In this document: piece by piece, positions 27,214 through 31,721 of the stretch
Layout of the letters: each line of letters begins with the position of its first letter
Numbering within the stretch: the stretch's first letter is position 1
Origin: Escherichia coli
GTDB lineage: Bacteria > Pseudomonadota > Gammaproteobacteria > Enterobacterales > Enterobacteriaceae
Reading direction: 5' to 3' (one strand)
Length of the DNA stretch: 64,000 bases
Assembly: GCF_009931435.1 (NCBI RefSeq)
Contig: NZ_CP043414.1
The notes under the pieces: generated by a model
Seen by the model: the letters and a program-made list of their open reading frames with translations, nothing else
Databases searched by the model: none
Told to the model about the DNA's origin: nothing
Translations under genes and position numbers: made by a program

Positions 27214-28878
27214 ATGTGTTCAATTTTTGGCGTATTCGATATCAAAACAGACGCAGTTGAGCTGCGTAAGAAAGCACTCGAGCTGTCACGCCTGATGCGT
27301 CATCGTGGCCCGGACTGGTCCGGTATTTATGCCAGCGATAACGCCATTCTCGCCCACGAACGTCTGTCCATTGTTGACGTTAACGCGGGGGCGCAACCTC
27401 TCTACAACCAACAAAAAACTCATGTGCTGGCAGTAAACGGTGAAATCTACAACCACCAGGCATTGCGCGCTGAATATGGCGATCGTTACCAGTTCCAGAC
27501 CGGGTCTGACTGTGAAGTGATCCTCGCGCTGTATCAGGAAAAAGGGCCGGAATTTCTCGACGATTTGCAGGGCATGTTCGCTTTTGCCCTGTACGACAGC
27601 GAAAAAGATGCGTATCTGATTGGTCGCGACCATCTGGGGATCATCCCGCTATATATGGGCTATGACGAACACGGTCAGCTGTATGTGGCCTCAGAAATGA
27701 AAGCTCTCGTGCCAGTATGCCGCACGATTAAAGAGTTCCCGGCGGGGAGCTATTTATGGAGTCAGGACGGCGAAATCCGTTCTTATTATCACCGCGACTG
27801 GTTCGACTACGATGCGGTGAAAGATAACGTGACCGACAAAAACGAGCTGCGTCAGGCACTGGAAGATTCCGTTAAAAGCCATCTGATGTCTGATGTGCCT
27901 TACGGTGTGCTGCTTTCTGGTGGTCTGGATTCCTCAATTATTTCCGCGATCACCAAGAAATACGCCGCCCGTCGCGTGGAAGATCAGGAACGCTCTGAAG
28001 CCTGGTGGCCGCAGCTGCACTCCTTTGCTGTAGGTCTGCCGGGTTCACCGGATCTGAAGGCAGCCCAGGAAGTGGCAAACCATCTGGGCACTGTGCATCA
28101 TGAAATTCACTTCACTGTACAGGAAGGTCTGGACGCCATCCGCGACGTGATTTACCACATCGAAACCTATGATGTGACCACTATTCGCGCTTCAACACCG
28201 ATGTATTTAATGTCGCGTAAGATCAAAGCGATGGGCATTAAAATGGTACTGTCCGGTGAAGGTTCTGATGAAGTGTTTGGCGGTTATCTCTACTTCCACA
28301 AAGCGCCGAACGCTAAAGAACTGCATGAAGAGACGGTGCGCAAACTGTTGGCCCTGCATATGTATGACTGCGCGCGCGCCAACAAAGCGATGTCCGCCTG
28401 GGGCGTGGAAGCGCGCGTTCCGTTCCTCGACAAGAAATTCCTCGACGTGGCGATGCGCATTAACCCGCAGGATAAAATGTGCGGTAACGGCAAGATGGAA
28501 AAACACATCCTGCGTGAATGTTTTGAGTCGTACCTGCCTGCAAGTGTGGCCTGGCGGCAGAAAGAGCAGTTCTCCGATGGCGTCGGTTACAGTTGGATCG
28601 ATACCCTGAAAGAAGTGGCGGCGCAGCAGGTTTCTGATCAACAGCTGGAAACTGCCCGCTTCCGCTTCCCGTACAACACGCCGACGTCCAAAGAAGCGTA
28701 TCTGTACCGGGAGATCTTTGAAGAACTGTTCCCGCTTCCGAGCGCCGCAGAGTGCGTGCCGGGCGGCCCGTCCGTCGCGTGTTCTTCCGCTAAAGCGATT
28801 GAATGGGATGAGGCGTTCAAGAAAATGGACGATCCGTCTGGTCGTGCGGTTGGTGTTCACCAGTCGGCGTATAAGTAA
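27214..28878 (+). CDS. asnB: asparagine synthetase B (glutamine-hydrolysing)
   Basis: ORF track 27133..28878; start placed at ATG 27214 (MCSIFGVFD..., catalytic Cys2), 554 aa; SGGLDSS PP-loop. Confidence 0.96.
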   Translation: MCSIFGVFDIKTDAVELRKKALELSRLMRHRGPDWSGIYASDNAILAHERLSIVDVNAGAQPLYNQQKTHVLAVNGEIYNHQALRAEYGDRYQFQTGSDCEVILALYQEKGPEFLDDLQGMFAFALYDSEKDAYLIGRDHLGIIPLYMGYDEHGQLYVASEMKALVPVCRTIKEFPAGSYLWSQDGEIRSYYHRDWFDYDAVKDNVTDKNELRQALEDSVKSHLMSDVPYGVLLSGGLDSSIISAITKKYAARRVEDQERSEAWWPQLHSFAVGLPGSPDLKAAQEVANHLGTVHHEIHFTVQEGLDAIRDVIYHIETYDVTTIRASTPMYLMSRKIKAMGIKMVLSGEGSDEVFGGYLYFHKAPNAKELHEETVRKLLALHMYDCARANKAMSAWGVEARVPFLDKKFLDVAMRINPQDKMCGNGKMEKHILRECFESYLPASVAWRQKEQFSDGVGYSWIDTLKEVAAQQVSDQQLETARFRFPYNTPTSKEAYLYREIFEELFPLPSAAECVPGGPSVACSSAKAIEWDEAFKKMDDPSGRAVGVHQSAYK

Positions 28879-28891
28879 GAAATGCGGTACT

Positions 28892-28920
28892 GCCCCGGAG
28901 AAATCCGGGGCTGTTTCAGT
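28892..28920 (+). terminator. terminator after asnB
   Basis: gccccgga gaaa tccggggc followed by tgtttcagtt. Confidence 0.65.
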
Positions 28921-29357
28921 TATTGAGCTGCTTGTTGATTCTGATATGCAGTAAGGAAATGTTCCGGGTTTGCCACATCACTGTTTGACAACTCATCACT
29001 GTAGGCCACCGACCAGGTCGCCTGCTCATCCGGAATATGCAGGCTGCCATTCCCCTCTTTCAGGCGTAATAACTCAAAAGATTTGCCCTTAATTACGGCG
29101 GTATAGGATTTTTCACCTTCCTGTAATGCTTTCACTTTACAGCGAAAAATCTGGCCATCGATGTCATTATCAACATGCGATACCTGAATGAGGGCTTCAT
29201 TAGAGGCTTTCGGCCCTATCCGCATCATCCACACCACAGCGCCTTCCTGCCCACGATAGCCAAAAACATATTTCCCGATTTCCGGTTTGACCGTATCGGC
29301 AAACGCAGATTGCATGAGTAATAACGCCCCCATCAGCGCCGTCATAAAACGCAGCAT
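28920..29357 (-). CDS. hypothetical secreted protein (145 aa, cleavable signal peptide)
   Basis: ORF track 28920..29357; ATG with gaggga 7 nt upstream; N-terminus MLRFMTALMGALLLMQSAFA then DTVKPE (AxA signal-peptidase site); no family recognised by eye. Confidence 0.6.
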   Translation of the reverse strand: MLRFMTALMGALLLMQSAFADTVKPEIGKYVFGYRGQEGAVVWMMRIGPKASNEALIQVSHVDNDIDGQIFRCKVKALQEGEKSYTAVIKGKSFELLRLKEGNGSLHIPDEQATWSVAYSDELSNSDVANPEHFLTAYQNQQAAQ

Positions 29358-29620
29358 AGTATTCCCTCAATAAATCGCCTGAAGTGGTAGCAGAGATGCA
29401 GGCGTAGCGATCCCTGCCCTGTCCTGTTGCAACGGGCCAGTATTTCATAGATTAATTTCCTACCACTATTGTTGAATTCCGAATTTCATCCTGTATGACA
29501 AAAGAATGGCTGTAGGGTGGGGAAAAAACACAAAGTAAACAATAATTGACGAATATAGCGCCACGCTGTTCGCAACCTAACCAAACAGTCACTTTCGAGC
29601 AATTTTCCTTGAAAAAGAGG

Positions 29621-29660
29621 TTGACGCTGCAAGGCTCTATACGCATAATGCGCCCCGCAA
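29621..29660 (+). promoter_or_regulatory. stable-RNA type promoter of the tRNA operon
   Basis: TTGACG -35 (29621-29626), 17-nt spacer, CATAAT -10 (29644-29649), GC-rich discriminator gcgccccgc; tRNA starts ~40 nt downstream. Confidence 0.65.
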
Positions 29661-29688
29661 CGCCGATAAGGTATCGCGAAAAAAAGAT

Positions 29689-29765
29689 GGCTACGTAGCT
29701 CAGTTGGTTAGAGCACATCACTCATAATGATGGGGTCACAGGTTCGAATCCCGTCGTAGCCACCA
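29689..29765 (+). tRNA. metT: tRNA-Met (CAU, elongator)
   Basis: 77-nt cloverleaf ggctacgtagctcagttggttagagcacatcactCATaatgatg...cgtagccacca with encoded CCA. Confidence 0.97.
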
Positions 29766-29773
29766 TCTTTTTT

Positions 29774-29858
29774 GCGGGAGTGGCGAAATTGGTAGACGCA
29801 CCAGATTTAGGTTCTGGCGCCGCAAGGTGTGCGAGTTCAAGTCTCGCCTCCCGCACCA
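29774..29858 (+). tRNA. leuW: tRNA-Leu (UAG)
   Basis: 85-nt gcgggagtggcgaaattggtagacgcaccagattTAGgttctgg... long variable arm, CCA end. Confidence 0.97.
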
Positions 29859-29881
29859 TTCACCAGAAAGCGTTGTACGGA

Positions 29882-29956
29882 TGGGGTATCGCCAAGCGGT
29901 AAGGCACCGGTTTTTGATACCGGCATTCCCTGGTTCGAATCCAGGTACCCCAGCCA
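29882..29956 (+). tRNA. glnU: tRNA-Gln (UUG)
   Basis: 75-nt tggggtatcgccaagcggtaaggcaccggtttTTGataccgg...ccccagcca. Confidence 0.97.
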
Positions 29957-29990
29957 TCTTCTTCGAGTAAGCGGTTCACCGCCCGGTTAT

Positions 29991-30065
29991 TGGGGTATCG
30001 CCAAGCGGTAAGGCACCGGTTTTTGATACCGGCATTCCCTGGTTCGAATCCAGGTACCCCAGCCA
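29991..30065 (+). tRNA. glnW: tRNA-Gln (UUG)
   Basis: Identical 75-nt copy of the UUG tRNA-Gln. Confidence 0.97.
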
Positions 30066-30080
30066 TCGAAGAAACAATCT

Positions 30081-30157
30081 GGCTACGTAGCTCAGTTGGT
30101 TAGAGCACATCACTCATAATGATGGGGTCACAGGTTCGAATCCCGTCGTAGCCACCA
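30081..30157 (+). tRNA. metU: tRNA-Met (CAU, elongator)
   Basis: Second 77-nt copy identical to metT. Confidence 0.97.
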
Positions 30158-30205
30158 AATTCTGAATGTGTCGAATGCGTTCGGCAAATTCACAAACCAA
30201 TTTGT

Positions 30206-30280
30206 TGGGGTATCGCCAAGCGGTAAGGCACCGGATTCTGATTCCGGCATTCCGAGGTTCGAATCCTCGTACCCCAGCCA
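30206..30280 (+). tRNA. glnV: tRNA-Gln (CUG)
   Basis: 75-nt tggggtatcgccaagcggtaaggcaccggattCTGattccgg...ccccagcca. Confidence 0.97.
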
Positions 30281-30317
30281 ATTTATTCAAGACGCTTACC
30301 TTGTAAGTGCACCCAGT

Positions 30318-30392
30318 TGGGGTATCGCCAAGCGGTAAGGCACCGGATTCTGATTCCGGCATTCCGAGGTTCGAATCCTCGTACCCCAGCCA
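30318..30392 (+). tRNA. glnX: tRNA-Gln (CUG)
   Basis: Second identical CUG tRNA-Gln copy. Confidence 0.97.
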
Positions 30393-30400
30393 CATTAAAA

Positions 30401-30430
30401 AAGCTCGCTTCGGCGAGCTTTTTGCTTTTC
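30401..30430 (+). terminator. rho-independent terminator of the tRNA operon
   Basis: aagctcgc ttcg gcgagctt followed by tttgcttttc; preceded by A-run. Confidence 0.85.
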
Positions 30431-30444
30431 TGCGTATATTCAAT

Positions 30445-30535
30445 GTCGAATGCGATGTTGACACGTCTTATTCTTCAAAGTCGGATGCGACGCTGATGCG
30501 TCTTATCCGACCTACAGTTGGCATGCATCCGGCAA
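30445..30535. repeat. REP-like palindromic units
   Basis: gtcgaatgcgatgttgacacgtcttattc and cggatgcgacgctgatgcgtcttatccgacctac. Confidence 0.75.
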
Positions 30536-30545
30536 TGTTGTAAGG

Positions 30546-31721
30546 CTACAACCCTAACGCATATTTCAGCGCCTGCCGTTTCAATACGCCAGCACGCTCC
30601 GCCGCCATTAACCCGAGATTACGCATAAAACGCAGTGGCGGCAGATTATTGCTGAATCCGGCATAAAACAGATCCATACCGCTTTGCATAATGAAGTTAT
30701 CCGCCATACGCCGCATCTGGTAACGCTTGAGGACAGGATAACTGGCCCACGCTTCACCGTAGCTGCGGGCATTCACCAGAACGTCAATCAGCGCATCAAC
30801 ATCGCGATAACCAAGATTCACCCCCTGCCCCGCCAGCGGATGAATGGTGTGCGCCGCATCGCCCACCAGCGCAAGCCCTGGCTGCACATACTGCAACGCA
30901 TGGCGGCGCGTCAGCGGAAACGCACCAGCAGCAAGCGGCGTTACATAACCCAGACGTGACGGGAAATGCTTCGCGATTTCCGCCTGGAGCTGCGCCATAT
31001 TCATATTCTGCAACTGGCGAATACGCGCTGGTGAGTCGTACCACACCAGCGATGCCCAGTTATCAAACAGCGGCAAAAACGCACGCGGCCCGTCCGGAGT
31101 AAACTGCTGCCAGGTGCTGTCGCCGGGATCATTCTCGCACTGTACGCTAATCAACATACACGACTGCGCATACTGCCAGGCATGAACGCCAATTCCCGCC
31201 ATTTGCCGCACCTGCGAATTTGCACCGTCAGCGCCAATCACCAGCTTCGCCTGGATCACTTCGCCCCCCTTCAGTTCCAGTTCCTGAAGATCATTATGGC
31301 GATGCAGAGCAATTAGTGAGCCTGGCACACGTAACGTTACTTTCGGATGCGCTTCCAGCGCCTGCCACAGCGCCTGTTGCAGGACAGTGTTTTCCACCAT
31401 ATAGCCAAGCAACGGCAGCTTCAATTCGGCTGCATCAAACACCACATGCGCCGTTTCCCACTCCCACGTTTCCAGTCTGCGATAAGGATGGCAACGCATG
31501 GCCTGTACCGCGTCCCAGACGCCTAAACCTTTAAGCAATGATACCGAAGCCGCACTAATCGCCGAGATCCGCACGTCAGGCTGGCTGTCAGCGACAAACG
31601 GTGCAGGCTCTGCATGCTCGATTACCGTTACCGAAAATCCGTGCTGAGCCAGTCCCAGCGCCAGTGCGCCGCCGACCATTCCTCCGCCGACAATGGCAAT
31701 TTCCGTTGGTTGATTTGTCAT
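30546..31721 (-). CDS. ubiF: FAD-dependent 2-octaprenyl-3-methyl-6-methoxy-1,4-benzoquinol hydroxylase
   Basis: ORF track 30546..31727 begins at an in-frame TTG; start placed at ATG 31721 (MTNQPTEIAIVGGGMVGG, FAD-binding GxGxxG), 391 aa. Confidence 0.93.
   Translation of the reverse strand: MTNQPTEIAIVGGGMVGGALALGLAQHGFSVTVIEHAEPAPFVADSQPDVRISAISAASVSLLKGLGVWDAVQAMRCHPYRRLETWEWETAHVVFDAAELKLPLLGYMVENTVLQQALWQALEAHPKVTLRVPGSLIALHRHNDLQELELKGGEVIQAKLVIGADGANSQVRQMAGIGVHAWQYAQSCMLISVQCENDPGDSTWQQFTPDGPRAFLPLFDNWASLVWYDSPARIRQLQNMNMAQLQAEIAKHFPSRLGYVTPLAAGAFPLTRRHALQYVQPGLALVGDAAHTIHPLAGQGVNLGYRDVDALIDVLVNARSYGEAWASYPVLKRYQMRRMADNFIMQSGMDLFYAGFSNNLPPLRFMRNLGLMAAERAGVLKRQALKYALGL

Follow-up and report, generated by a model that had tools for sequence, protein, structure and literature searches.

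How old are the duplicated genes of a bacterial tRNA operon, and is the small gene beside it a newcomer or a resident that most strains have lost? The question is raised by a 64 000-nt stretch of the Escherichia coli contig NZ_CP043414.1 (hereafter the window), in which seven tRNA genes follow one another on the plus strand, with a 145-amino-acid (aa) open reading frame (ORF) upstream. The locus is the long-known E. coli metT operon, and nothing contradicts this identification. The classic suppressors supE and supB lie in it, and Nakajima, Ozeki and Shimura reportedly sequenced it first, in 1981. Known for decades and a standard substrate in tRNA-processing studies, it carries little weight as a discovery. 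The window instead prompts two corrections to a first-pass annotation made from the sequence alone, which had described the cluster as a set of local tandem duplications and the ORF as a candidate tRNA-adjacent insertion. The gene duplications are old, with copies that appear to be held identical by selection together with exchange between them, and the adjacent small gene is ancestral and was deleted in most E. coli, making K-12 the derived state at the locus. The evidence consists of gene content and order, copy identity, synteny, conservation and a deletion junction, each observed or computed here. We consider the account as a whole (metT operon, old duplications, ancestral neighbouring gene) nearly certain.

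ARAGORN called seven tRNA genes, all on the plus strand and the whole of its yield for the window, and Rfam model RF00005 matched the same seven at 57.6–71.1 bits (gathering score 29). Together with the signals that enclose them, they are arranged as follows.

29600–29619, plus strand: A/T-rich stretch upstream of the −35 hexamer, a putative UP element as read from the sequence
29621–29626 and 29644–29649, plus strand: −35 hexamer TTGACG and −10 hexamer CATAAT of the metT promoter, 17-nt spacer between them, discriminator GCGCCCCG at 29650–29657 (promoter scan, sequence, conservation)
29689–29765, plus strand: metT, elongator tRNA-Met(CAU) (ARAGORN, Rfam, RefSeq)
29774–29858, plus strand: leuW, tRNA-Leu(UAG) (ARAGORN, Rfam, RefSeq)
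29882–29956, plus strand: glnU, tRNA-Gln(UUG) (ARAGORN, Rfam, alignment)
29991–30065, plus strand: glnW, tRNA-Gln(UUG), same sequence as glnU (ARAGORN, Rfam, alignment)
30081–30157, plus strand: metU, elongator tRNA-Met(CAU), same sequence as metT (ARAGORN, Rfam, alignment)
30206–30280, plus strand: glnV, tRNA-Gln(CUG) (ARAGORN, Rfam, alignment)
30318–30392, plus strand: glnX, tRNA-Gln(CUG), same sequence as glnV (ARAGORN, Rfam, alignment)
30398–30432, plus strand: Rho-independent terminator with an 11-bp stem, a UUCG loop and a following U-run (terminator scan, folding; PMC2241853)

Alignment gave 100% identity within each of the pairs metT/metU, glnU/glnW and glnV/glnX, whereas the Gln(UUG) and Gln(CUG) types differ at 7 of 75 positions, comprising the anticodon arm and compensatory changes in the T-stem. 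All seven genes end in an encoded CCA. We read metT as an elongator rather than an initiator gene because G1 and C72 are paired and its anticodon stem, inspected in the sequence, lacks a run of three G–C pairs. The identification as the metT operon follows from several features: the gene order Met-Leu-Gln(UUG)x2-Met-Gln(CUG)x2 on one strand, the chromosomal site between asnB and ubiF/miaB, a single sigma-70-like promoter with one strong terminator after glnX, and mature tRNAs identical to those of the K-12-like strain LAM_HS and of K-12 strain PG20180050, save for a supE anticodon change in the latter. Order, anticodons, all seven mature sequences, promoter, terminator and the asnB and ubiF flanks are the same as in K-12, and the seven tRNA genes, promoter and terminator are identical in LAM_HS. 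The differences from K-12 comprise one A in the A-run of the leader, three changes in the metU–glnV spacer (two substitutions and one indel; none in the other five spacers), and a 431-bp segment with the 145-aa gene, which the window strain retains between asnB and the promoter and K-12 lacks.

A 2-kb query around the cluster matched 5424 of 5426 complete E. coli genomes. Its best match (99.8% identity) was the chromosome NZ_AP027764.1 of E. coli strain 2017-02-2CC, where RefSeq annotates asnB, a hypothetical protein, seven tRNAs, ubiF and miaB. Matches to this query fell into classes of 79% and 63% coverage, a likely artefact of joining two-piece minus-strand matches; the classes were not used, and ORF counts come from an ORF-specific query. 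The gene names, order and identical pairs proposed in the first-pass annotation were recovered by ARAGORN, Rfam, RefSeq and alignment. Its anticodons, offered there for checking by tRNA gene calling, were those that ARAGORN returned for the same seven genes, and its span of 29621–30430 runs exactly from the −35 hexamer to the terminator end. Its claim of one promoter with a GC-rich discriminator and a strong terminator likewise agreed with promoter and terminator scans and with folding.

The seven-gene order recurs in E. albertii, E. marmotae, Pseudocitrobacter, Enterobacteriaceae G50 and an assembly of Salmonella enterica. A 38-nt leuW pattern, run against species-representative genomes, detected it in Citrobacter, Enterobacter and Mixta as well. 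Across Enterobacterales the operon holds 5, 6, 7 or 8 genes. Morganella has five (Met-Leu-Gln(UUG)-Met-Gln(CUG)); six-gene forms lack one Gln(CUG) in Photorhabdus, Xenorhabdus, Pantoea stewartii and Acerihabitans, or one Gln(UUG) in Pseudescherichia, Siccibacter and Pantoea sp. IMH; and Pluralibacter and Superficieibacter carry three Gln(CUG) genes. Alpha- and beta-proteobacteria have Leu(UAG) as a solitary gene. The duplications are thus older than the divergence of Escherichia, Salmonella, Citrobacter, Enterobacter and Mixta, and they would have arisen in tandem on a Met-Leu-Gln(UUG)-Met-Gln(CUG) core before the Enterobacteriaceae radiated. What stands of the earlier reading as local tandem duplications is the ultimate origin by duplication, with a copy number that varies; recency does not, given an order conserved across genera. 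Alignment of the spacers between copies, which had been suggested as a check, gave no significant similarity among paralogous spacers in 28 pairwise local alignments with shuffle controls, only short A- and T-runs; the lowest shuffle P, 0.018, came from a bare A-run. A repeat finder extended the Met repeat 16 nt upstream at ~62% identity, which a shuffle test found not significant (P = 0.21). Since paralogous spacers share no similarity, they give no evidence on the order of the duplications.

The position of the small gene relative to its neighbours is as follows.

28920–29357, minus strand: 145-aa ORF whose product is predicted to be secreted, RefSeq family WP_000943486.1 ("hypothetical protein")
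29009–29439: 431-bp segment deleted in K-12-type E. coli, bounded by GGCCA at 29004–29008 and at 29435–29439 (alignments)
27214–28878, plus strand: asnB (asparagine synthase B), upstream neighbour (ORF list; translation start MCSIFGVF; RefSeq annotation of the 99.8%-identical record)
30546–31721, minus strand: ubiF, convergent downstream neighbour (ORF list, RefSeq)

The ORF that the first-pass annotation placed next to the operon does exist, on the minus strand. Its specific 425 bp occur in 985 of the 5426 E. coli genomes, as a single copy that is always chromosomal and never on a plasmid. Close homologues of the protein occur only in Escherichia species, some Salmonella, Pseudocitrobacter, Superficieibacter and one further enterobacterial genus. 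The ratio of nonsynonymous to synonymous divergence (dN/dS) of the ORF is 0.07–0.08 against E. albertii, E. marmotae and Salmonella, which marks it as a real, constrained gene. K-12-type strains retain its last ~89 nt. Their junction lies within GGCCA, a motif present at both ends of the segment in the window, and the 431-bp deletion takes the first ~116 codons, the ribosome-binding site and ~80 bp upstream. Because the ORF-less strains carry a stump and a microhomology junction, the K-12 state is a deletion of an ancestral gene: the gene is ancestral and vertically inherited, and most E. coli lost it through this 431-bp microhomology-bounded deletion. Strain 32F4 has the K-12 junction and, within the ORF stump, a further 70-bp loss bounded by CTGTTT, which reads as stepwise erosion of a pseudogene stump.

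Could the gene pairs nevertheless be recent tandem duplications within the E. coli lineage, too young to differ? The 100% identity within pairs would fit, as would the short-term change in copy number seen in a six-gene E. coli isolate and in the 1 to 8 Gln places per genome. However, other genera share not only the seven-gene order but also the spacers, whose orthologues are recognisable across genera, and for both the glnU–glnW and the glnV–glnX spacer Citrobacter and Enterobacter hold a separate orthologue. Spacers that a young duplication would have copied along with the genes, moreover, bear no resemblance to one another. For the arrangement in the window, cross-genus conservation refutes a recent origin, to which we give next to no credence. 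Purifying selection acting alone could be what keeps the copies alike, and very strong constraint on each gene is evident: all seven are unchanged from E. coli to Salmonella, despite a synonymous divergence (dS) of 0.74 in asnB. Yet in Pseudocitrobacter glnV and glnX depart from E. coli by an identical set of five changes (one at an unpaired base, the other four making up two compensatory pair swaps in the anticodon stem), whereas its relative Enterobacteriaceae G50 has those five in glnV only. That two genes fixed such a set independently is improbable, and the gain and loss of copies among genera shows that exchange between copies occurs. The glnV/glnX pattern resembles tandem copies caught in the midst of homogenisation. 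We therefore judge selection alone an unlikely explanation and infer that copy identity is better explained by selection plus gene conversion. Purifying selection with gene conversion or unequal exchange would hold the copies identical while at times adding or removing one.

A comparable choice concerns the 145-aa ORF, which might be a small insertion that targets the tRNA locus and was acquired horizontally by a minority of E. coli. The restriction to 985 genomes would agree with this, as would a G+C content of ~47% against 51–56% in the flanking genes and the lack of a known family. Its placement speaks against it: the arrangement of asnB, ORF, tRNA operon and ubiF is identical in the five related lineages looked up (E. 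albertii, E. marmotae, Salmonella, Pseudocitrobacter and Enterobacteriaceae G50; Superficieibacter was left out), and ORF divergence rises in step with that of asnB. A late arrival is also at odds with the strains that lack the ORF, which keep its last ~89 nt and the GGCCA junction, one of them with the stump shortened by a further 70 bp. Nor does the ORF behave like a tRNA-targeted element. It lies 5′ of the operon promoter instead of at a tRNA 3′ end, it is present at this site in related species, and it has neither a plasmid copy nor a second copy. The variable 431-bp segment contains no integrase or recombinase gene and holds only part of this one ORF, and a repeat search found only the tRNA paralogues, with no tRNA-end direct repeat or att-like repeat; the deletion is bounded by the 5-bp GGCCA. 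The same site in outgroup genera, purifying selection, the stump with its junction, and the lack of an integrase or tRNA-end repeat leave the proposed tRNA-adjacent insertion very improbable, and an ancestral gene lost by deletion is the reading we retain.

The overall account has several weak points. The Salmonella enterica locus comes from a third-party assembly; its asnB is as divergent as fits Salmonella (87.7% nucleotide identity, dS 0.74), yet the tRNA spacers share 96% identity with those of E. coli, which could reflect constraint or past recombination. The argument for gene conversion draws on one pair of related genomes. For the metT promoter, literature searches found no direct test of the transcription start or of control by guanosine tetraphosphate (ppGpp) or the stringent response. 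The six spacers (29766–30317) of E. marmotae and Salmonella are 93–96% identical to those of E. coli, at an asnB dS of 0.44–0.74, and either constraint or exchange would account for it.

The promoter matches 10 of 12 consensus positions and is the sole promoter-like site on either strand between 28800 and 30700. Positions 29601–29655 are identical in Salmonella (55/55) and nearly so in Pseudocitrobacter (50/55), and the GC-rich discriminator GCGCCCCG, directly 3′ of CATAAT, is invariant in the eight related loci compared. Transcription would start near 29657, ~7 nt past the −10 hexamer. GC-rich discriminators are typical of stable-RNA promoters controlled by growth rate and ppGpp, and from this and the discriminator itself we infer that the promoter is under stringent control, with inhibition by ppGpp/DksA and dependence on growth rate. 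At the other end, the terminator-like site at 30398–30423 with its T-run folds at −16.3 kcal/mol (z = −4.4), a stability reached by none of 200 shuffles, and the A-run on its 5′ side makes the terminator potentially bidirectional.

The single sigma-70 promoter would yield a primary transcript of ~775 nt ending in the U-run of the terminator. In K-12, the seven tRNAs were found together on one full-length transcript by northern analysis (PMC2241853). RNase E takes off the terminator and frees the distal tRNAs from one another; the five proximal tRNAs are parted by RNase P, which also generates all mature 5′ ends, and RNases T, PH and D complete the 3′ ends (PMC2241853). According to PMC4191395, RNase E cuts at sites 2 and 39 nt downstream of metU, and cleavage near metU requires neighbouring single-stranded regions and the upstream glnW tRNA (PMC4191395; PMC9841416). 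Since the window shares its tRNA genes, promoter and terminator unchanged with the K-12-like strain, and the leader and spacers show only four differences, the published processing, from a heptacistronic precursor through RNase E and RNase P, should apply by analogy to the operon in the window. As described for K-12, RNase E would cut A/U-rich single-stranded parts of the distal spacers, after which exonucleases would trim to the encoded CCA.

Some spacers also contain hairpins, as listed here.

29971–29982, plus strand: mini-hairpin GCGG-TTCA-CCGC in the glnU–glnW spacer, stem sequence kept across genera, little covariation
30163–30192, plus strand: two-tier conserved hairpin in the metU–glnV spacer (folding, covariation)
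30293–30309, plus strand: conserved hairpin in the glnV–glnX spacer (folding, covariation)

The metU–glnV hairpin (−11.1 kcal/mol, z = −2.1) shows compensatory changes at 7 of 8 pairs among 13 enterobacterial sequences and sits between the two reported RNase E sites downstream of metU (PMC4191395). In the glnV–glnX hairpin (−6.1 kcal/mol), 5 of 7 pairs changed in a compensatory manner across Enterobacteriaceae. Here 93.8% of cells are paired, against 20–57% with slid partners, and none of 500 shuffles reached the observed covariation. The hairpins may steer RNase E to the A/U-rich single-stranded segments on either side, or may stop adjacent identical tRNAs from misfolding together. Covarying spacer hairpins beside mapped RNase E sites are of possible specialist interest.

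Three further features of the leader and spacers were observed. The metT leader at 29674–29690 (GAAAAAAAGAT) is complementary to the trailer at 29763–29779 (ATCTTTTTT) over 17 nt (88%), a pairing that would lengthen the acceptor stem in the precursor. The TCTTTTT trailer of metT is conserved across Enterobacterales. In E. albertii the leuW–glnU spacer measures 104 nt against 23, and the extra 81 nt start with the tRNA-Gln-like TGGGG and end with AAATTTGT, which resembles the 3′ end of the metU–glnV spacer; the insert may be a decayed gene copy.

The arrangement also bears on tRNA supply. A tRNA-Gln query hit a median of 4 places per genome (21 537 places in 5423 E. coli genomes, range 1 to 8), and an elongator tRNA-Met query a median of 2 (10 855 places in 5423 genomes), so the operon normally carries every copy of these genes. 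It is the only E. coli source of elongator tRNA-Met, both tRNA-Gln isoacceptors and tRNA-Leu(UAG), in agreement with PMC6265465, and is therefore essential; by experiment, the metT transcription unit could not be deleted without complementation (PMC11480407). Its single promoter, tandem identical tRNA genes, encoded CCA and maturation by RNase E and RNase P recall argQZYV-serV, lysT-valT-lysW-valZ-lysYZQ and glyVXY (listed in PMC11480407). Unlike these operons, metT holds every gene copy for four anticodons, and its five proximal tRNAs are parted after terminator removal mainly by RNase P and not by RNase E (PMC2241853).

Variant records were found within E. coli. In the K-12 O16:H48 strain PG20180050 the glnX anticodon is CTA, the supE44 amber suppressor; RefSeq leaves the gene unannotated and ARAGORN labels it "Pyl". 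The allele has been reassigned to glnX in K-12 laboratory strains (PMC4444293). Copy-number variants occur rarely among E. coli assemblies: that of strain KE21 has six genes, one Gln(CUG) fewer. That of E. coli MC1061 (NZ_CP195014.1) shows only Met-Gln(CUG) between asnB and ubiF, with leuW and Gln(UUG) nowhere in the record. A real deletion was rejected as unlikely because the transcription unit is essential, and the record probably reflects a collapse of repeats in assembly. Outside the genus, Budvicia diplopodorum has the order Met-Leu-Gln-Gln-Met-Leu-Gln, with a 222-nt spacer that carries a second promoter copy (TTGACG ... GATAATGCGCTGCGC) ahead of the second Met-Leu-Gln unit, apparently a tandem duplication of the whole unit including its promoter.

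The product of the 145-aa gene begins with a signal-like N-terminal helix ending in AFA, and a GAGG motif lies upstream of the start codon. Database searches placed it in no family: Pfam and NCBIfam gave no family at E ≤ 1, PHROGs only a non-significant match (E 0.037), a sequence search of PDB with the family profile nothing below E 0.7, and Foldseek against PDB weak matches only (E ≥ 0.035). A profile search with the family found ~200 cluster representatives, a few of them with the domain joined to a TIR, nucleotide-cyclase or receiver domain; Pfam, run on ten of the distant relatives, recognised these partner domains only and left the barrel itself unmatched. The predicted eight-stranded beta-barrel with a signal peptide or lipobox is shared with the MliC/PliC periplasmic lysozyme inhibitors, to which no sequence-profile match and no sequence-level relation was found. 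Unlike them, the protein carries an additional helix at its C-terminal end, in which the motif ANPEHFLTAY is invariant, and the lysine position of the inhibitors' YxxxTKG-like motif is not conserved in the 145-aa family (alignment read by eye). Modelling predicts a small secreted beta-barrel that is PliC/MliC-like in fold and not a member of that family. An uncharacterised, predicted secreted barrel protein with a PliC-like fold and ~200 distant relatives may also interest specialists. A 55%-identical relative was seen on a metagenome contig, between amiC and mltA among several small ORFs. We put forward only tentatively, and with the balance somewhat against it, a joint reading in which the metU–glnV and glnV–glnX hairpins are functional parts of the precursor and not neutral filler and, separately, the 145-aa gene represents an undescribed family of PliC-like periplasmic barrels lost by most E. 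coli.

Downstream, between the terminator and the end of ubiF, 30441–30516 holds dispersed palindromic repeats of the repetitive extragenic palindromic (REP) type, identified from copy number and sequence. An IUPAC pattern for the REP consensus had no match in the window, and the assignment rests instead on copy number: the 95-nt stretch 30436–30530 matches 10 places in the median E. coli genome.

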